From positions 1 to 23,607 of IMG/VR virus record IMGVR_UViG_2778261356_000013: a DNA stretch of 23,607 bases; one strand, 5' to 3'. The position numbers were made by a program, and so were the translations under genes. Origin of the DNA: a virus (Duplodnaviria > Heunggongvirae > Uroviricota > Caudoviricetes). The notes beneath the pieces are model-generated. The model saw nothing but the letters and a program-made list of their open reading frames with translations, was not told the origin of the DNA and searched no databases. Shown one piece after another: positions 1 to 11,754 of this stretch (within the stretch, counting starts at the first letter, position 1; each line of letters starts with the position of its first letter).

Positions 1-1053
1 TTACGGGGTAATGCCAACCGCTGCCGCCACTTTGTCGCCACTTGGCAGCGTTGCCAGAGGATTGAAACGGAGCGCCGTTTCCAGATGATCCGGTGCCAGA
101 TGTGCGTAACGCATAGTCATTTTTATATCGTGGTGTCCGAGAATTTTTTGTAAGGCCAGAATGTTTCCACCCGACATCATGAAGTGCGCCGCAAACGTAT
201 GGCGCAGAACGTGTGTGAGTTGACCGCGAGGGAGCACGATAGACGTTTTTTCCATCACGGATAAAAATTGAAAATAGCAGTCTGTGAAGAAATTGAACCC
301 ATCAAGCGCCATGATCTCTTCGTAAAGCTCTTTACTGATAGGGATGCTTCTGTTTTTCTTCCCCTTCGTTCTTACAAAGGTAATTCGGTATTTGGTCACC
401 TGTGAACGAGTAAGATTTACGGCTTCTCGCCAGCGTGCGCCTGTGCTTAAGCATATCTTAACTACCAGTGCCAGAATTGGGTCCTGACGTTTGCAATCAG
501 CCAGTAATTCAACAATCTGCTCATGGGTAAGCCATGCCATCTCTTTTTCTGCGATGGTGAATTTTCGCATGTTCTCCAGTGGGTTCGGATACGACCATTC
601 GCCCAGGCGGGATAGTTCGCTAAAAACACTACTTAGATAGCTTTGCTCCAGGTTAATGGTGACCGGGCTTGCTCCTTTCTTCCATTTCTCGCTGAAGTAG
701 ATCTCACCTGTCAGGCGTTTATCTCGATAGTGGGCAAACATTTTAGAGGTTAGATCAGTTGCAAGGGGATTGCCCAGAGCGTCAACCATCAGCAGCAATT
801 TGTCATAGACATGCTGCCCAGCAGTTAGTGATTTACCATGTAGTTTGAACCATAGCTCAACCACGTCTTTCAGTGTTCGACGATCCACTGATTCACCTAG
901 CCAGGGCTTTGCTTCGGTTTCTTCCATCGTGTGACGCTCAAAAGCCAGTGCTTCGCCTTTGGTGGCGAATTGTTTACGCACACGACGCCCACTACGTCCG
1001 GCGGGGTAACATTCGCAAAGCCATTTTCCTGTGGTGAGTTTTCGTACAGCCAT
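1..1053 (-). CDS. int: Tyrosine integrase (P2/186-like); likely true start is the internal Met (MAVRKLTTGKW...), about 350 aa
   Basis: C-terminal catalytic region LTHVLRHTFAAHFMMSGGNILALQKILGHHDIKMTMRYAHL (R..H-x-x-R ... Y) typical of tyrosine recombinases; reverse-strand ATG at 1053-1051 preceded by GGAGGG; first gene of a P2-like early region, divergent from lysogeny module. Confidence 0.85.
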   Translation of the reverse strand: MAVRKLTTGKWLCECYPAGRSGRRVRKQFATKGEALAFERHTMEETEAKPWLGESVDRRTLKDVVELWFKLHGKSLTAGQHVYDKLLLMVDALGNPLATDLTSKMFAHYRDKRLTGEIYFSEKWKKGASPVTINLEQSYLSSVFSELSRLGEWSYPNPLENMRKFTIAEKEMAWLTHEQIVELLADCKRQDPILALVVKICLSTGARWREAVNLTRSQVTKYRITFVRTKGKKNRSIPISKELYEEIMALDGFNFFTDCYFQFLSVMEKTSIVLPRGQLTHVLRHTFAAHFMMSGGNILALQKILGHHDIKMTMRYAHLAPDHLETALRFNPLATLPSGDKVAAAVGITP

Positions 1054-1241
1054 AAAAAATGCCCTCCAATAGAGAGCATTTTTACTGTATGTATAACCAG
1101 TGTCAATGTATGAAATCCTGCGACCATACATCTCACTGAAGCCATAATGAAGTAGGCTATTCTTTTTGCTATGTGATCATGTAACTTTTGCGGTTAACCT
1201 GAGGCTCATTTTTATTTTAGGCGCAGATATAAAAGCAAAAG

Positions 1242-1448: not shown

Positions 1449-2018
1449 CTATTTAACATACTTGACTGTTAAACTTATAATTTTACCAATTATTTCAATG
1501 TCTTCTATCTTACATTCAAAGGCTCTGTTTCCACCCTCGACGAAGATTCTTCCACCGGGTAAACGAGTAATGTCACGGATCGTTATTTCGCCATCAATAC
1601 TTATTACCCATTTACCATCACGTATATCATCAAATTCCTTATCACAAATAAATTCAGAATTATTATCTGTGATTACAAAAAGATTCTTGAATGCCGACGG
1701 TAGAAATTCTCTATCGAAAATATAAAAACCGTCTTCACACAAGGCCCCATCAGATAATACATATTTAGCAACTTCCATAGTATTTGTATTACCTGAAGTT
1801 TGCTTTGAACCATGCCCGGTTGTGAGCCAATTAAGCGAGGTGCCTGTTTCAAGGGCGCACTGGATTACCCATTCTGCTGGGAATGAGTCACGCATGTAGC
1901 GTGTGGCGAGTGTACTTTTAGAGATTCCTAAATGATCGCACAACGCCTGTCGAGTCTTGAATCCATAAGCTTCTACCATGCGCTCTATGGCGCCTCGTCC
2001 GCCTTTCTCCAAATTCAT
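1449..2018 (-). CDS. cI: Immunity repressor, 186 CI-like (ORF-track start at 2024 is GTG; ATG at 2018 with GGAG upstream preferred)
   Basis: HTH-like N-terminus (RQALCDHLGISKSTLATRYMRD); about 190 aa; divergent from apl/cox-like gene across a promoter-bearing intergenic region; position immediately upstream of int as in P2/186. Confidence 0.7.
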   Translation of the reverse strand: MNLEKGGRGAIERMVEAYGFKTRQALCDHLGISKSTLATRYMRDSFPAEWVIQCALETGTSLNWLTTGHGSKQTSGNTNTMEVAKYVLSDGALCEDGFYIFDREFLPSAFKNLFVITDNNSEFICDKEFDDIRDGKWVISIDGEITIRDITRLPGGRIFVEGGNRAFECKIEDIEIIGKIISLTVKYVK

Positions 2019-3948: not shown

Positions 3949-4802
3949 GCACCATCCTGAAATGGGCGGGAAATAAAACTGCCATAATGTCCGAACTAAA
4001 AAAACATCTTCCTGCTGGCCCGCGACTGGTTGAACCTTTCGCGGGTTCCTGTGCTGTGATGATGGAGACGGATTATCCCAGCTATCTGGTTGCGGATATT
4101 AATCCTGATTTAATCAACCTCTATAAAAAGGTTGCCGCTGATTGTGAATCGTTTATATCTCGCGCCAGAGTTTTATTTGAGATCGCAAACAGGGAGGTGG
4201 CTTATTACAACATAAGGCAGGAGTTTAATTACTCAACTGAAATTACTGATTTCATGAAAGCGGTATATTTCCTGTATCTCAATCGTCACGGTTACCGTGG
4301 TTTATGTCGCTATAACAAGAGCGGGCATTTCAACATTCCCTACGGTAATTATAAAAATCCGTATTTCCCTGAAAAAGAAATTCGCGCATTTGCAGAAAAG
4401 GCCCAGCGAGCAACGTTTATCTGCGCCAGCTTTGATGAAACGCTGGCGATGTTGAAGGCGGGGGATGTGGTGTATTGCGATCCGCCGTATGACGGTACGT
4501 TTTCCGGCTATCACACTGACGGCTTCACTGAAGATGACCAGTATCACCTGGCATCTGTTCTTGAACATCGGTCATCAGAAGGACATCCGGTCATTGTTTC
4601 TAACAGTGACACATCCCTGATCCGTTCGCTGTATCGCAATTTTACTCACCACTACATCAAGGCAAAACGCAGCATCGGTGTGGCAGCTGGCGAGGGTAAA
4701 TCAGCAACAGAAATCATTGCTGTTTCCGGGCCGCGCTGCTGGGTGGGATTTGATTATTCGCGTGGCGTGGATAGTTCTGCCGTGTACGGAGTACGTGCAT
4801 GA
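3945..4802 (+). CDS. dam: DNA adenine methyltransferase, Dam-like (ORF-track start 3885 is an upstream extension; ATG 3945 with GGAGG RBS preferred)
   Basis: Catalytic DPPY motif ([11 protein letters not shown]) and AdoMet-binding region ([11 protein letters not shown]) typical of N6-adenine MTases; N-terminal LKWAGNK. Confidence 0.85.
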
Positions 4803-7213
4803 GTCATGCCGATATGAACAACTGCTGCGGCTTTAACGAAGCTGCCGCATCGTTCTCATGGAACAGCTCGAAAAAGGCCATTAACCCTTATCTGGACCCG
4901 GTGGAAGTTGCGCCGGTTTCTACGCTTTCAAACCTGATCACTCTGTACGCTGCCGATAACGAGCAGGAACAGCTGCGCCGTGAGGCGCTGAGTGATCAGG
5001 TCTGGGAGCGTTATTTCTTTAATGAATCCCGTGATCCTGTCCAGCGCGAAATGGAACAGGATAAGCTCATTAGTCGGGCAAAGCTGGCGCATGAGCAGCA
5101 GCGTTTTAATCCGGATATGGTCATTCTGGCGGACGTCAACGCCCAGCCTTCCCATATCAGCAAGCCGCTGATGCAACGTATTGAATACTTCAGCAGCCTG
5201 GGCAGGCCAAAGGCTTATTCCCGCTATTTACGTGAGACGATTAAGCCATGTCTGGAACGACTGGAGCATGTACGCGACAGTCAGCTATCTGCATCTTTTT
5301 GCTTTATGGCAAGCCATGAAGGGCTGGACGGCCTGCTGATCCTGCCTGAAATGAGTCAGGATCAGGTGAAACGCCTGTCCACCCTGGTAGCTGCGCATAT
5401 GAGTATGTGCCTTGATGCCGCTTGTGGCGATTTGTATGCTACCGATGACGTTAAGCCAGAAGAAATCCGCAATACATGGGAAAGGGTGGCAGCGGAAACC
5501 CTGCGTCTGGATGTCATCCCGCCTGCGTTTGAGCAACTCCGTCGGAAAAGAAACCGCCGTAAACCCGTGCCCTATGAACTCATTCCGGGTTCGCTGGCGC
5601 GTATGTTGTGCGCCGACTGGTGGTATCGGAAATTATGGAAGATGCGTTGCGAATGGCGGGAAGAGCAGTTGCGTGCTGTCTGCCTTGTCAGCAAAAAAGC
5701 ATCTCCCTATGTCAGCTATGAAGCCGTGTTGCATAAACGTGAGCAGCGCCGTAAGTCGCTGGAGTTTTTCCGTTCTCATGAACTGGTGAACGAAGACGGC
5801 GACACGCTAGACATGGAGGATGTGGTAAACGCCAGCAGCAGCAACCCTGCGCATCGCCGCAATGAGATGATGGCCTGTGTTAAAGGTCTGGAGCTTATCG
5901 CGGAAATGCGCGGTGACTGCGCCGTTTTCTACACCATCACCTGTCCGTCACGTTTCCATTCCACGCTAAATAACGGCAGGCCCAACCCGACCTGGACAAA
6001 TGCGACGGTAAGACAAAGCAGCGATTATCTGGTCGGTATGTTTGCTGCATTTCGTAAGGCGATGCACAAAGCCGGGTTGCGCTGGTATGGCGTGCGGGTG
6101 GCTGAGCCGCATCACGACGGCACAGTTCACTGGCACCTGTTGTGTTTCATGCGCAAAAAAGACCGCCGCGCCATTACAGCATTGTTGCGTAAGTTTGCTA
6201 TCCGTGAAGACCGCGAGGAGCTGGGCAATAACACGGGGCCGCGCTTTAAGTCTGAGCTGATTAACCCGCGCAAAGGAACGCCGACAAGCTACATAGCGAA
6301 ATACATCAGTAAGAACATTGACGGGCGTGGTCTGGCTGGCGAGATCAGCAAGGAAACGGGTAAATCTCTGCGTGATAACGCTGAATACGTGAATGCCTGG
6401 GCGTCTTTGCATCGTGTTCAGCAATTCCGCTTCTTTGGCATTCCGGGGCGTCAGGCTTACCGTGAACTGCGATTGCTGGCTGGTCAGGCGGTAAGGCAAA
6501 AGGGGGACAAAAAAGCAGGTGCGCCGGTACTGGATAACCCGCGCCTTGATGCCATCCTGGCTGCTGCTGATGCTGGTTGTTTTGCCACCTACATCATGAA
6601 GCAGGGCGGCGTACTGGTTCCCCGTAAATATCACCTCATCAGAACCGCTTATGAAATCAACGAAGAGCCGACCGCCTATGGCGATCACGGCATTCGTATT
6701 TATGGCATCTGGTCACCCATTGCAGAGGGCAAGATCTGCACTCATGCAGTGAAGTGGAAAATGGTTCGTAAAGCCGTTGACGTTCAGGAGGCGGCAGCCG
6801 ACCAGGGCGCTTGCGCCCCTTGGACTCGTGGCAATAACTGTCCCCTTGCTGAAAATTTGAACCAACAAGGGAAAGACAAATCAGCTGATGGGGATACCAG
6901 GACGGACATTACCTGCATGGATGACAAGGAGTTGCACGATTACCTGCACAGTATGAGCAAAAAAGAGCGCCGAGAACTGGCTGCAAGGTTACGCCTCGTG
7001 AAACCGAAACGGCGTAAAGACTACAAACAGCGAATTACAGACCATCAGCGACAGCAGCTCGTCTATGAACTGAAGTCCAGAGGATTTAATGGCAGCGAGA
7101 AAGAGGTCGATTTACTCCTTCGCGGCGGCAGTATTCCGTCAGGAGCAGGCCTGCGTATCTTCTATCGGAACCAGCGTTTGCAGGAAGATGATAAGTGGCG
7201 AAACCTGTATTAA
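4799..7213 (+). CDS. A: Rolling-circle replication initiation endonuclease, P2 gpA-like (804 aa)
   Basis: HUH-type motif ([10 protein letters not shown]) and paired tyrosines ([14 protein letters not shown]) typical of P2 A / phiX174 A superfamily; start overlaps dam stop (ATGA). Confidence 0.85.
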
Positions 7214-7282
7214 TTACGCGGGTTAACAATTCGTGCTCTTAATAATACCAGGCATATCAGGCTGATGAACGTAAAAAAACGT

Positions 7283-7325
7283 TTTACATCAGTAAGATTA
7301 TTATATACTGTAAATATAAACAGTG
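7283..7325 (+). promoter_or_regulatory. SOS-type promoter with LexA box (TACTGTAAATATAAACAGTG, 7306-7325) overlapping the -10 region; -35 TTTACA at 7283-7288
   Basis: Perfect CTGT-N8-ACAG core at 7308-7323 read from sequence; about 40 bp upstream of the next ORF. Confidence 0.6.
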
Positions 7326-7366
7326 GTTATGTATACAGTATTGCTTGTGGTGTCATAGGAGGAAAG

Positions 7367-7555
7367 ATGCAGGACTATTTTTTGGAGTCTTTGAAGCTCC
7401 AGCGCATTGATTTTTTTCTTAAGCTTGTAGCGGCTAGTGAGTGTAGTGATGAAGAGAAGGGGCTGGCTTTGCAGTGGGTTTCTGAACTGACAGATGAACT
7501 CATGGCAAAAATCAGAACCCACGAATACAACCGCTCAATGGATGTCATCAGCTGA
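7367..7555 (+). CDS. Small SOS-controlled protein (62 aa), possible Tum-like antirepressor N-terminal module
   Basis: ATG 7367 with AGGAGG RBS; directly downstream of LexA box; function inferred from position only. Confidence 0.4.
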   Translation: MQDYFLESLKLQRIDFFLKLVAASECSDEEKGLALQWVSELTDELMAKIRTHEYNRSMDVIS

Positions 7556-7565
7556 GGTGACTTTT

Positions 7566-7799
7566 ATGCGCATTGAAATAATGATCGATAAAGAGCAGAA
7601 GATTAGCCAGTCTACCCTAGACGCCCTTGAATCCGAGCTTTACCGCAATCTGCGCCCCCTATATCCAAAAACGGTAATTCGCATCCGCAAAGGTAGCTCT
7701 AACGGTGTGGAACTGACCGGACTGCAACTGGACGAAGAAAGAAAACAAGTGATGAAAATTATGCAGAAGGTGTGGGAAGACGACAGCTGGCTGCATTAA
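7566..7799 (+). CDS. DinI-like protein (77 aa)
   Basis: Sequence MRIEIMIDKEQ...KVWEDDSWLH resembles DinI family (MRIEV... WE...W C-terminus); GAGGTG RBS; downstream of LexA box. Confidence 0.7.
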   Translation: MRIEIMIDKEQKISQSTLDALESELYRNLRPLYPKTVIRIRKGSSNGVELTGLQLDEERKQVMKIMQKVWEDDSWLH

Positions 7800-7807
7800 G
7801 AAACCTT

Positions 7808-7838
7808 GCCCCCAAGAGAATTTATTCTGATGGGGGCT
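7808..7838 (+). terminator. Stem-loop after DinI-like gene (GCCCCCA...TGGGGGC), weak U-tract
   Basis: Inverted repeat seen directly 9 nt after the stop codon; lacks strong T-run so intrinsic termination is uncertain. Confidence 0.35.
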
Positions 7839-8205
7839 AGTTTGGGCAACGAGTGAAACGAGGCGTAAGGTGGGCGGCCATTTTGATAAGTGATTGTACG
7901 CTTTGTGTTGTGAGTTCAACGGGTCGATGCAACGCTATCCTTAATCAAGGGGACGTTGCTCATACCCATCGATGCAATGAAAATCCATACTCATGGGGAA
8001 GACCAGAATGTCCCTGCCTTTTTCATTTTGTTCAGCACATGCACTATGGCCATTGCCTTCCCAAGCTAGCTATCGTAATCACTCAGCGTCAGTAAACTAC
8101 TGAAAAATTGTTTTACCTTGTATATCAATAATGCCAAATCATACCCAAAAAATCGAAAATAATTAGATCGACAGGCAGAAGGCAATGTGAATAATCTTAA
8201 AAACC

Positions 8206-8236
8206 TTGACTGCCAGTGAGGTTTGGTTCTATAAAT
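8206..8236 (+). promoter_or_regulatory. Candidate sigma70 promoter for darT-like operon (TTGACT 8206-8211, -10 near TATAAA(T) 8230-8236)
   Basis: Hexamers and spacing read from sequence about 30 bp upstream of the ATG. Confidence 0.35.
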
Positions 8237-8266
8237 AGACTTACGAATTTGAAAGGATGAGTTGAA

Positions 8267-8848
8267 ATGAGCGAAAGGAAAAGAATTGAAGACCAGTATC
8301 TTCTCTATCATTTAACATGTATGGATAATCTACCTAGTATTTTAGACACAGGATTAAGATCTCGTGCATCAGTAAAAGGTGAGTTTGTTGATGTGGCCGA
8401 CGGTGAAATAATAACAGGTCGCGAAGCATTAAATTTGCAAACAATGGTTCCTTTTCATTTCTTTACTAAGAATCCATTTGATGGAAGAGTCCTGAAAGAT
8501 CATAAGGAAAAATCATTTTGTATTATTTCGGTTTGTCGGGCATTTGCCAAAGAAAATGGTTGGAAAGTTATCCCTAAACATCCATTATCCACCAGTTCTG
8601 TTATAGACCTCTTAGATTATGAACAAGGAATGGCCCAAATTGACTGGGAGCTTATGAATATAAGGGATTATAAAAATGCAGAATGCAAATCTGTATGTAT
8701 GGCTGAGTGTTTATCAAGTGTAACGGTCGAGCCGAAAAATTTCCATTGCATCTTTGTCAAAAATGATAACGAAAAAAAATATGTTGAAGGGTTGATAAAA
8801 CAACAAGGATTAAGTATATTGATAACGATCAACACTTATATGTTCTAA
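8267..8848 (+). CDS. darT: DarT-like (DUF4433) DNA ADP-ribosyltransferase toxin (193 aa)
   Basis: Motifs YHLTCMDNLPSIL, VPFHFF and C-terminal MAECL resemble DarT signature blocks (YHxTHxxNLxxIL, VPFYF, catalytic AEFLV), from recall; AT-rich; followed 4 nt later by macrodomain gene. Confidence 0.7.
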   Translation: MSERKRIEDQYLLYHLTCMDNLPSILDTGLRSRASVKGEFVDVADGEIITGREALNLQTMVPFHFFTKNPFDGRVLKDHKEKSFCIISVCRAFAKENGWKVIPKHPLSTSSVIDLLDYEQGMAQIDWELMNIRDYKNAECKSVCMAECLSSVTVEPKNFHCIFVKNDNEKKYVEGLIKQQGLSILITINTYMF

Positions 8849-8852
8849 TTCT

Positions 8853-9824
8853 ATGATTAAGTATGCAAGCGGAAATCTTCTAAACTCTACATCGCAAGCT
8901 CTTGTGAATGCTGTAAACTGCCAAGGAGTCATGGGAAAGGGTATTGCTTTGGCTTTTAAAGAAACTTTTCCCTATAATTTCGAAGTTTATAAGAGAGCAT
9001 GCGCCACTGGTACAATGAAAATTGGACAGGTTTTAATTGTAGAGGAAAAGGGAAAAATAATCGTAAACTTTCCCACTAAAGATAGTTGGAGAAAAAAATC
9101 AACATATGATTTTATCTCGCAAGGCCTTGAATCTTTAGCAAAAATTATAGACGAAAAAAAAATTACATCAATATCAATACCACCTTTAGGCTGTGGTAAT
9201 GGGGGCCTCGATTGGAATAAGGTTGAGGCTCTTATTTTAAAAACTTTTCAAAATTTAGATAATGTTGATGTGGTAATTTATCCGCCTGCAACTAACAATC
9301 AACTTTCAAAAAATAAAAATGTTATTAATGCTAAGCATCTTTTGGTTCACTACGCCTATGGAAAATTAAAAGTTAAGCAAAAATATTCCCTTTATACAGT
9401 TTTTTATATTTGCGAATGTATTGAGAAAGCAAATCTTTTTTTATTCGATTTTAAACATGGTCGGCCATACTCTTCTGAGTTAGAAAATATTATGAAGGAT
9501 ATAGCAAACCTTAAAGTTGAGTTGCAAGGAGATTTTGATGCTTTTATTGAAGATTATATTAATACTCATCAATCCAAAGAGTTACAAACCGAGTTTGGTA
9601 AACTAATCTCAACTTTAAATCCAAGTATAAGTTTTCTCAATGCTCTTAAAAATAAGATTGATTATACAGATAGCGTACATGTGATCACGAGAATTGCTAA
9701 AGAAAAAGATCATGGCTTGCATATTGACAATTTCAAAGAATATGAAAATATTGTGCAGCATTTAATTAAAAATGGATTGGTAATCGAAGATATTTTTAAC
9801 GAACTAAAAATAAAGGGAAGTTAG
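8853..9824 (+). CDS. darG: DarG-like macrodomain antitoxin (323 aa): N-terminal macrodomain plus C-terminal domain of unknown fold
   Basis: Macrodomain signature ALVNAVNCQGVMGKGIALAFKETFP ... SIPPLGCGNGGLDW; operon partner of DarT-like gene. Confidence 0.7.
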   Translation: MIKYASGNLLNSTSQALVNAVNCQGVMGKGIALAFKETFPYNFEVYKRACATGTMKIGQVLIVEEKGKIIVNFPTKDSWRKKSTYDFISQGLESLAKIIDEKKITSISIPPLGCGNGGLDWNKVEALILKTFQNLDNVDVVIYPPATNNQLSKNKNVINAKHLLVHYAYGKLKVKQKYSLYTVFYICECIEKANLFLFDFKHGRPYSSELENIMKDIANLKVELQGDFDAFIEDYINTHQSKELQTEFGKLISTLNPSISFLNALKNKIDYTDSVHVITRIAKEKDHGLHIDNFKEYENIVQHLIKNGLVIEDIFNELKIKGS

Positions 9825-10376
9825 TAGCGCTATTTTCAATTTTTTTGCTGAAATTGCGCATGCACACTCTTACGCATTATAGATGCGGCGTTAATCCCGC
9901 CAGGAGTGTTGTTTAATAAATTGAACTATTTCTGCATTGAAGGATCAACTTACGCATTCGCTGACAACGCAGGCACTCTCCTGGCTAAGCAGAAATTCAG
10001 AGTAACCAACTGGCACTTTTACAACAATTTTCTTATCAGTTGCGGCTCCATGACTTTCTGGTGGGATAACAAAGCAATTAAGGCGTGGTATTGTAAGTAT
10101 CCCGCATAATCATGCTAGTAACATTTGTCCCCCATGTAACCTAATTAAGGCAACTTCCGCTCTTCGCTCACAGTGAACCTCCATGTTTGTAAACCCGTAT
10201 ATTTCGTTTTTCAAGTGGTCATTCAGATACGGATTTTCACTTCTCTTGGCTGTGCATGTCTATGCCGCATGAATCCGCATGATCGTTTGAGGATCGTTTT
10301 TGCTGAGGCCCCCCAGAACTGGCGGGCTTTTGCTTATGTCATGCAGGTGCATGAAAACCACTGCATAAAGCGGGCA

Positions 10377-10395
10377 GGCGTGGCGGGGATACGAG
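10377..10395. other. Candidate cos (cohesive end) site of the P2/186 family
   Basis: GGCGTGGCGGGGATACGAG resembles the 19-nt cohesive ends I recall for 186 (GGCGTGGCGGGGAAAGCAT) and P2 (GGCGAGGCGGGGAAAGCAC); lies in a 680-bp non-coding stretch on the terminase/portal side of the cargo locus. Confidence 0.45.
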
Positions 10396-10503
10396 CGCGC
10401 GCTTGTGGCTTTGAATACTCAAATCATGTAATGTTAATTGTCCAAGCTCAGATGTTATTTTAGAATCGTAGTTCACTAGAACTGTGTTAATTGGGAAGTA
10501 TTC

Positions 10504-11754
10504 ATGGATAAACAACGTGCTTCACAAGTTTTTGTGCCTGGCGGTATGCCGAAATTGACTTATGTTGAGCGCTCTGAAGGAGAGGTTCATGGAAAACTGG
10601 AGAGTGCTAAAGATAATTTATGTAAGTTAGTGACTTTAACTGGGCAAACAAAGTCTGGTAAGACTGTAATTACAAGAATGGTATTCCCAGTCATGGACGA
10701 TGATGTTGTATGGATTGACGGTGGGAGTATTACAACTGAAGATGATATTTGGGAGCAGGTATTAGAAAAACTAAATGGCTACCATAGTATTGAAGTTAAT
10801 TCTGGAGAAAATAGTGCTATTGCAGTTAGTGGTAAGGTATCGGGGACCGCAAGTGCATTAGTTGTTAAAGGTACAGGTGAGGCTGGTTTAGTTCAGACGG
10901 ATGGAAAGTCAAATGGTAATAAAAAATCGCGAACGATATCCGCAAAAAGTTCTGCACTAAAAGTTCTCTCTCAAACCAAGTCTAGTCTTATAATTGATGA
11001 CTTTCATTACCTTGATCGTGACCTACAAGGTAACTTTATTAGAGCGATAAAACCATTAGTTTTTGATGGAGTACCAGTTGTACTGATAGCCATTCCACAT
11101 CGAAGGTATGATGCTGTAAAAGTTGAAAAAGAAATTACCGGACGGCTAGAAAATATTTCCATGCCTTCGTGGGAAATGGATGAACTAAAACAAATAGCAA
11201 AAGTGGGATTTCCTCTGTTAAACATGGAAGTTAGTGATTCAGTAATTGATAAAATTGCCAATGAATCATTGGGAAGCCCTCATTTAATGCAAGAGTTTTG
11301 CAAGGCTATATGCTTAGCAAATAATGTTAAAGAAACTTTGCCGAGTAAGTTAGTTATTAATTCTTTAGATGATGATATTTTTAGAAAGGTTGCAGAATCC
11401 ACTGGGAAAATAGTATTTGATAAGTTAGCTAGTGGCCCTAATCAGCGAACTGACAGAATTCCTAGAAAACTGAAAAGTGGTGAGGAAGTAGATATATATA
11501 AAGTTGTATTATATGCATTGTCACATATGAAACCAGGAATGCAAAGTATTCAGTATGAGGAGTTAAGATCAGCCATACGCGAACTGGTGCAAGATGCTCC
11601 TCCACAAGCTCATGAGGTTACTCGTGTTATAGAAAAAATGGCTAAAATAGCTGCTACGGAAGAAGCTTCAACTCCTGTAATAGATTGGGATAAGGAGGAC
11701 CGAAAGTTGCATATTACTGATCCATTTTTTGCTTTTTATCTAAAATGGCGATAA
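10504..11754 (+). CDS. Orphan P-loop NTPase, AAA+/ATPase_2-like (416 aa); candidate stand-alone defence or exclusion gene
   Basis: Walker A GQTKSGKT (aa 47-54), Walker B LIIDDFHYL (aa 162-170, resembles xIDEFQYL of archaeal-type AAA ATPases); Gly/Ser-rich insert between them; ATG 10504 with GGGAAG RBS; AT-rich; located between candidate cos and portal gene. Confidence 0.6.
   Translation: MDKQRASQVFVPGGMPKLTYVERSEGEVHGKLESAKDNLCKLVTLTGQTKSGKTVITRMVFPVMDDDVVWIDGGSITTEDDIWEQVLEKLNGYHSIEVNSGENSAIAVSGKVSGTASALVVKGTGEAGLVQTDGKSNGNKKSRTISAKSSALKVLSQTKSSLIIDDFHYLDRDLQGNFIRAIKPLVFDGVPVVLIAIPHRRYDAVKVEKEITGRLENISMPSWEMDELKQIAKVGFPLLNMEVSDSVIDKIANESLGSPHLMQEFCKAICLANNVKETLPSKLVINSLDDDIFRKVAESTGKIVFDKLASGPNQRTDRIPRKLKSGEEVDIYKVVLYALSHMKPGMQSIQYEELRSAIRELVQDAPPQAHEVTRVIEKMAKIAATEEASTPVIDWDKEDRKLHITDPFFAFYLKWR

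Follow-up and report, generated by a model that had tools for sequence, protein, structure and literature searches.

Positions 7,283 to 7,799 of the 23,607-nucleotide viral DNA analyzed here (the whole stretch is referred to below as the window) very probably contain the SOS induction operon of a Fels-2-like prophage of the P2 family, equivalent to the p95-tum unit of phage 186 but with tum present as two genes, tumA and tumB. The finding stands, but it is an ordinary one, as the system is already known. The sole point that is possibly new is a colicin-type dual LexA operator in front of tumA, which departs only slightly from regulation already described.

The prophage in the window belongs to the P2 family, has immunity of the 186 type, and is most closely related to Salmonella phage Fels-2 and to similar prophages of Escherichia coli. 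It begins with an integrase gene (1-1131, minus strand) and the cI gene for a 189-aa 186-type immunity repressor (1449..2018, minus strand; Pfam Phage_CI_repr, 2.8e-33, and Phage_CI_C, 2.7e-27), and in map order CII, Fil, DUF5347, and a Dam methylase lie between cI and the gene for replication protein gpA (gene A; 4799-7213; Pfam Phage_GPA, 1.6e-127). A 153-nt gap after gpA and the two small genes downstream of it are the site of the SOS module, so that the order runs from the gpA end (7213) to tumA (7367), a variable cargo region, and the portal-side genes from 11787 onward. This position, directly 3' of gene A and ahead of the cargo, is the same in 186, PSP3, Fels-2, and DuoHS, a prophage of E. 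coli HS. A non-cleavable CI-type repressor had been suggested in the preliminary description of the sequence, and the window CI is indeed of the 186 type: its match to the Peptidase_S24 domain remains below the gathering score (16.3 versus 23.3 bits), and it is predicted to lack a LexA-like self-cleaving peptidase domain and to be non-cleavable. It is 33% identical to 186 CI and fully identical (189/189) to the CI of DuoHS, and it is the presumed target of TumA.

The window contains a single CTGT-N8-ACAG pattern, at 7308-7323, where the preliminary description had recognized a perfect LexA box overlapping a promoter. By itself this core is weak evidence, with at least one match in 30 of 100 shuffles. 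The full 20-mer TACTGTAAATATAAACAGTG (LexA box 1; 7306-7325), which agrees with the LexA consensus TACTGTATATATATACAGTA at 17 of its 20 positions, confirms the box, as such a match was reached in none of the 100 shuffles. A LexA box with one to four mismatches also precedes the tumA-like gene in each of the 15 P2-like phages compared, which belong to several Peduoviridae genera. The promoter stood as well. The hexamer TTTACA (7283-7288, plus strand) is the putative -35 element of an SOS promoter analogous to 186 p95, and the -10 region (7304-7311, plus strand) can be read as TACTGT (7306-7311) with a 17-nt spacer or as TATACT (7304-7309) with a 15-nt spacer. LexA box 1 overlaps the TACTGT hexamer. 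The layout matches that of annotated 186 p95 (TTCACA-18-TACTGT), in which the annotated -10 hexamer TACTGT forms the opening six bases of the LexA box. In SopEphi, SEN8, and Klebsiella phage ST512-KPC3phi13.6 (Kp ST512phi13.6), the -35 hexamer has kept both its sequence and its distance, while at least 7 of the 17 spacer bases differ. The SOS promoter was missed by a generic sigma-70 scan because TACTGT shares only three of six positions with TATAAT, and the promoter assignment is based on the analogy to annotated 186 p95 and on conservation. Given the box conserved in 15 P2-like phages, the p95-like layout, and the conserved -35 spacing, we consider the predicted LexA box and promoter to be real features, which places a putative LexA operator over the promoter of a Tum-type gene.

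A second, putative LexA box, CAGTGGTTATGTATACAGTA (box 2; 7321-7340), shares 5 bp with box 1. Its right half is perfect and its left half degenerate, with five mismatches that include the normally invariant C of CTGT. Together, the two boxes make up a 35-bp operator (7306-7340) with an offset of 15 bp and the CAGTGGTTAT junction, as in the dual SOS boxes of the colicin type. The operators compared were those on small Col plasmids, and the 35-bp length, the 15-bp offset, and the CAGTGGTTAT junction are shared with the colicin R, N, and E1 operators. The window 35-mer TACTGTAAATATAAACAGTGGTTATGTATACAGTA is identical at 31 of 35 positions to the colicin R operator TACTGTACATAAAACCAGTGGTTATGTGTACAGTA and is close to that of colicin N AACTGTATATAAAACCAGTGGTTATGTGTACAGTA. 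In addition, colicin operons and the window operon each control a product whose expression ends in cell lysis. There are also differences: the colicin boxes are located just 3' of the -10 hexamer, whereas box 1 in the window overlaps it, and the downstream genes are unrelated.

The dual operator was found in all of the Fels-2-type lineages examined (Fels-2, DuoHS, SopEphi, SEN8, Kp ST512phi13.6, and Ec 500465-1), and it is present in phages of the genera Felsduovirus, Gegevirus, and Wadgaonvirus. Across the Fels-2-type lineages, free variation is confined to the three bases in the middle of the box 2 spacer, and the flanks diverge. A single LexA box was seen in 186, PSP3, ENT90, the Yersinia phages, and the ESSI-2-type phages. 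When IMG/VR was scanned for a dual-box pattern, at least 120 matches were obtained, and among the matches listed about 115 precede the same tumA and a few lie elsewhere; as the scan pattern had a fixed box 2 half-site, these counts are uninformative on conservation. We found no description of a dual operator at the Fels-2-type tum promoter in the literature searched, a set to which Bunny et al. 2002 did not belong, and a literature search with the operator string CAGTGGTTAT returned unrelated papers only.

It is quite possible, although we do not favor it, that box 2 is functionally irrelevant, being part of the leader or a relic, and that the operator is a single LexA site as in 186. The five mismatches of box 2, one of them at the otherwise invariant C, are in line with this view, and 186, PSP3, and other phages manage with one box. 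However, colicins R and N share the degenerate left half with the window operator, which is nearly identical to that of colicin R over its whole length, and colicin operators have been reported to bind two LexA dimers (PMC2994835). Moreover, box 2 has been kept in three lineages that are separated by a dS of ~0.8 to 1 and in which the promoter spacer and the leader have diverged. We put forward only tentatively, as a somewhat unlikely proposal drawn from the sequence, that the Fels-2-type tum promoter is under a colicin-type dual overlapping LexA operator and not under a 186-style single box. In that case, LexA would occupy both boxes of the predicted 7306-7340 operator, and the dual operator could plausibly serve as a device for tuning the induction threshold, making induction tighter and later.

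The first gene of the operon, tumA (7367..7555, plus strand), is preceded by a strong SD sequence, AGGAGGA (7357-7363), and encodes a putative antirepressor of 62 aa. The preliminary description had proposed aligning the two ORFs with 186 Tum and with E. coli DinI, and for the 62-aa ORF the outcome depended on the method. No pairwise BLASTP alignment was obtained with 186 Tum or PSP3 TumA. BLASTP was likewise negative between PSP3 TumA and 186 Tum, and therefore the pairwise test has no power for this fast-evolving domain. Sequence searches of Pfam, NCBIfam, PADLOC, and PDB gave no match to the 62-aa ORF either. The profile comparisons were positive. The first 70 residues of 186 Tum match phrog_698, the family of the window 62-aa protein, at 5.9e-6, and the window protein itself matches phrog_8554 (2.4e-8), which includes a Yersinia phage protein with the annotation "tum protein," and phrog_1993 (2e-3), to which PSP3 TumA belongs, with all of these cross-matches being colinear over residues ~6 to 48. 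When a small alignment of the window family was compared by hhalign with one of the 186/ENT90/Yersinia/PSP3 Tum N-terminal family, each profile containing few sequences, residues 1-42 aligned with residues 1-42 at 96.6% probability (E, 7e-10). Profile comparison thus identifies the 62-aa ORF as distantly homologous to the antirepressor part of Tum, its N-terminal half.

Selection and structure prediction add to this picture. The dN/dS ratio of tumA is ~0.09 in comparisons with the SopEphi, SEN8, and Klebsiella lineages (dS, ~0.8 to 1.0). A single-sequence AlphaFold (AF2) model of TumA is a two-helix hairpin (pLDDT, 91.6; helices at residues 2-23 and 28-61), and the conserved Cys is predicted to be located in the loop between the helices. 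The rapid divergence of the TumA half fits an antirepressor that coevolves with CI, which here is only one-third identical in sequence to its 186 counterpart.

The second gene, tumB (7566..7799, plus strand), has the SD sequence GAGGTGA (7554-7560), which overlaps the tumA stop codon. Its 77-aa product matches the Pfam DinI family (PF06183) at 6.6e-23 over profile positions 1-63 of 63 (81.3 bits; cut-off, 24.2) and is 78% identical to PSP3 TumB. It aligns end to end with the E. coli DinI structure 1GHH (E, 2.7e-6), including the acidic C-terminal W-E-x-D-x-W region. However, TumB does not reach the cut-off of NCBIfam PRK10597, the equivalog of chromosomal E. coli DinI (42.7 versus 111 bits), and on these matches the window protein is classified as a phage DinI-like paralogue of the TumB type and not as dinI itself. 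The dN/dS ratio of tumB is 0.05 to 0.09 relative to the SopEphi, SEN8, and Klebsiella lineages, at the dS of ~0.8 to 1.0 given above for tumA. Based on the homology to DinI and on the note "modulates SOS induction" in the 186 record, TumB probably modulates RecA filament activity.

Genetic evidence is available from DuoHS. In the Phollow study, "tum" (ECHS_RS04495) was deleted in this prophage (PMC12055606; preprint, PMC11195241), and either the delta-tum deletion or a lexA(Ind-) allele abolished mitomycin C-induced lysis and virion foci (PMC12055606; PMC11195241). We found that ECHS_RS04495 is the 62-aa gene directly 5' of the DinI-like gene and that its product is identical to window TumA at 61 of 62 residues. 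With the published deletion primers, the ATG of ECHS_RS04495 is joined exactly to its TGA and the DinI-like gene remains untouched; the parts of these primers that derive from the phage match the window sequence. The gene is therefore the same, the CI is identical, and the deletion is exact, meaning that the proposed function has already been demonstrated on an essentially identical element; the deletion experiment bears on the requirement for the gene and not on its mechanism.

These data also bear on whether the DinI-like protein could be the induction effector and the 62-aa ORF an unrelated small gene, which we consider very unlikely. Such a division of roles would agree with the lack of a curated family annotation for the 62-aa ORF and with the label "RecA filament binding protein DinI" that public databases give to the whole of 186 Tum. 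However, the DuoHS deletion takes only the 62-aa ORF and spares the DinI-like gene, yet induction is abolished, and the 62-aa ORF is linked by profile homology to the N-terminal half of Tum. Furthermore, five phages (ENT90, ESSI-2, ESSI2_ev015, YenM_324, and YenM_06.16-2) have a tumA-like gene behind a LexA box but no DinI-like gene, and for this reason we regard TumA as the core component and the DinI-like part as an accessory.

The preliminary description had noted ORFs of 62 and 77 aa in different frames, the latter DinI-like, and had described 186 Tum as a protein of about 146 aa with a DinI-like C-terminal part. Both points were borne out: Lemire et al. 2011 (PMC3121763) describe 186 Tum as 146 aa long with a second half similar to DinI, and residues 71-146 of that protein share 41% identity with TumB of the window. 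Between the two arrangements considered at that time, a natural pair of genes and a frameshifted tum, the comparison supports the former. The "overlapping frames" reported at 7494-7555 are a chance upstream open extension of the DinI frame, which in relatives comprises 25, 14, or 1 codons of unrelated sequence, and the genes themselves are separated by 10 nt. The relative frame of tumA and tumB is +1 in the window, Fels-2, and DuoHS and +2 in SopEphi, SEN8, and the Klebsiella phage, while in PSP3 the two are separated by an in-frame stop codon and 3 nt. The 637-bp module is present in 1125 of 5426 complete E. coli genomes (~1/5), mostly at 95 to 99% identity, and in 67 phage records. The tum split is a natural two-gene arrangement and not a frameshift, as is seen from the SD sequence of each gene, the purifying selection on each frame, the retention of three relative frames, and the occurrence of the module in these 1125 genomes.

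It is accordingly hardly credible, and already refuted by the comparative data, that the two ORFs are what is left of a 186-like tum broken by a frameshift and the module a decaying pseudogene: Tum is a single fused protein of 146 aa in 186 and EtG, and the window DinI frame is open back to 7494 across the end of the 62-aa ORF, but each gene has a start codon of its own and is under strong selection in its own frame, the split is kept in Fels-2, DuoHS, SopEphi, SEN8, the Klebsiella phage, and PSP3, the open extension is unconserved, the module is present in over 1000 E. coli genomes, the 62-aa gene of DuoHS is functional by itself, and even the fused tum of 186 has an annotated internal GTG start that gives a DinI-like product of exactly 77 aa.

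Some other features of the region were considered and set aside. Longer ORFs of 96 aa (from 7265) and 101 aa (from 7494) were rejected, as their extensions start 5' of the promoter or are unconserved, and so were two antisense ORFs (7301-7522 and 7375-7548, minus strand), as the selection falls on the sense 62-aa and 77-aa frames. A terminator-like site called by the scan at the tumA/tumB junction (7544-7561) is unconserved in the SopEphi lineage and was not counted as a terminator. Downstream of tumB, a GC-rich hairpin, GCCCCCA...TGGGGGC, with a weak T tract (7808..7837, plus strand; -19.8 kcal/mol; z, -2.5) was not called by the terminator scan. The 186 partial terminator t95a occupies the equivalent place, and by this analogy the hairpin is a possible partial terminator bordering the cargo region. 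An Rfam search of 7100-8400 gave only a chance miRNA match (E, 0.85).

Among the known systems, 186 p95-tum resembles the window in most respects: (i) the operon follows gene A; (ii) a LexA box lies over a TACTGT -10 hexamer; (iii) the antirepressor module precedes the DinI-like module; (iv) the target is a 186-type CI; and (v) a hairpin and variable cargo follow the operon. In 186, however, tum is one 146-aa ORF with internal starts and is preceded by a single LexA box, whereas the window has two genes in different frames, 10 nt apart, and a dual operator. Window TumA has diverged from 186 Tum beyond the reach of BLAST, in step with the CI proteins. According to Lemire et al., tum is split in two in Fels-2 and PSP3, and the antirepressor activity resides in the upstream PSP3 gene (PMC3121763), in agreement with the PSP3 record, where tumA ("UV induction of prophage") and tumB are annotated. 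The two-gene arrangement of PSP3 tumA/tumB and Fels-2 STM2728/STM2726.1 is that of the window. Fels-2 is close to it, with 97.6% identity in the module DNA and 98% in the 62-aa protein. In PSP3, unlike in the window, the two genes are in the same frame behind a single LexA box, and TumA belongs to PHROG 1993 and not to PHROG 698. DuoHS has the same CI and TumB as the window, a TumA differing at a single residue, and identical box 1 and promoter sequences. The cargo 3' of tumB differs between the two, as do the three central bases of box 2 (ACA versus GTA). The attachment region of DuoHS lies beside rcdA, as it does in strain E423, the nearest E. coli match to the window module.

LexA-controlled antirepressors are also known from Gifsy-1, Gifsy-2, Gifsy-3, and Fels-1, in which GfoA, GftA, and FsoA are accompanied by dinI homologues (PMC3121763). 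As in the window, these prophages have a LexA-repressed operon for a small antirepressor and a DinI homologue together with a non-cleavable repressor (PMC3121763). Judged by their description, they are set apart from the window element by their lambdoid nature, by dinI being the first gene, and by unrelated repressor and antirepressor families.

The following course of events is proposed for the window element. In the lysogen, host LexA would bind the operator at 7306-7340, over the -10 hexamer and the predicted transcription start, and keep the operon off. DNA damage would lead to RecA-stimulated self-cleavage of LexA, the promoter would be freed, and tumA and tumB would be transcribed. TumA, the predicted helical hairpin of 62 aa, would then bind the 186-type CI, which is not expected to be cleaved by RecA, and keep it from binding its operators. 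The early lytic promoter would fire, and the prophage would excise and replicate. The coexpressed DinI-like TumB (77 aa) would most likely bind RecA filaments and modulate the SOS signal. The boxes, the promoter geometry, the two genes with their homologies, the synteny, and the purifying selection are all read from the sequence presented here. For the binding of TumA to CI, we infer from the behavior of 186, for which PMC3121763 cites Shearwin et al. 1998, that the antirepressor may act directly on the repressor; in 186, Tum binds CI and blocks its binding to the operators.

The module sets when a very common family of prophages in E. coli, Salmonella, and Klebsiella leaves lysogeny. Its logic is textbook knowledge for 186 and has been genetically confirmed in a near-identical prophage, and nothing new in principle comes from the window. 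The contribution of the analysis is modest: it compares fused, split, and tumA-only versions of the module and draws attention to the colicin-like dual SOS box of the Fels-2-type operator, which may tune the induction threshold. The profile-level link to Tum could also improve the annotation of an unannotated 62-aa "hypothetical protein" (phrog_698). If two LexA dimers do bind the operator, the SOS threshold for induction would be tighter in these very common prophages than in 186 and would be reached later. The dual operator would then represent a "last resort" logic shared with colicin release, and the near identity of the 35-mers would point to exchange of a promoter module between Col plasmids and P2-like phages or to strong convergence between them.

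The cargo region of the window begins immediately after tumB, the gene for the 77-aa DinI-like protein. Sequence elements homologous to Fels-2 and to DuoHS, the E. coli HS prophage, end exactly at the tumB stop codon (7799/7800), and what lies 3' of tumB varies by phage: 186 has orf97, Fels-2 and HS have hypothetical genes, and the window has DarTG. The 7799/7800 boundary is one border of a P2-type cargo hotspot.

A DarT-DarG toxin-antitoxin defence pair was identified in this variable region directly after tumB (8267-9824), comprising DarT (193 aa; PADLOC, 2.2e-36) and the macro-domain protein DarG (323 aa; PADLOC, 4.6e-80), and a promoter-like site, TCGACA-16-AATAAT, is located nearby at 8168-8195. 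Positions 10504-11754 encode a 416-aa AAA-ATPase-like protein with a match to PDC-S59, a candidate defence family of PADLOC (6.6e-32); its gene has DarTG on one side and the portal gene on the other. The 96-aa ORF at 10173-10463 had no family match.

The only genome found to match the module at 100% was the E. coli E423 chromosome, where the module is also followed by DarT and a macro-domain gene. The E423 prophage is degraded there, with truncated portal, tail tube and IS fragment pseudogenes plus an AIPR gene, whereas the window looks intact. In Escherichia phage 500465-1 (801-1240), tumA and the DinI-like gene both appear frameshifted: tumA reads EERGWLCSGV in place of EEKGLALQWV, and the DinI-like gene has a 1-nt deletion after ATGCGCATTGAA. 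These apparent frameshifts could be sequencing errors or decay.

A LexA-boxed tumA-like gene with no DinI-like partner was found in five P2-like phages, namely, ENT90, ESSI-2, ESSI2_ev015, YenM_324 and YenM_06.16-2, and the ORF is missing from the record annotations of ESSI-2 and YenM_324. At the tumA/tumB junction of the window (7544-7561), GTCATC...GGTGAC makes up a small hairpin, with TTTTAT after it, that takes in both the stop codon of tumA and the Shine-Dalgarno sequence of tumB; translation of tumB could be coupled to that of tumA through this hairpin. The hairpin has the same sequence in Fels-2 and DuoHS; the junction sequence of the SopEphi lineage is different.

The LexA operator of the window spans 35 bp (7306-7340) and consists of two overlapping SOS boxes of the colicin type; 31 of its 35 positions agree with the colicin R operator. 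Among the matches listed, a few IMG/VR contigs (L033, 944-978; L039, 4919-4953; L122; and L136) carry the dual-box motif before unrelated sequence rather than tumA. In the operator comparison, the dual operator was not found in 186, PSP3, ENT90, the Yersinia phages or the ESSI-2-type phages; it was present in all of the Fels-2-type relatives compared.
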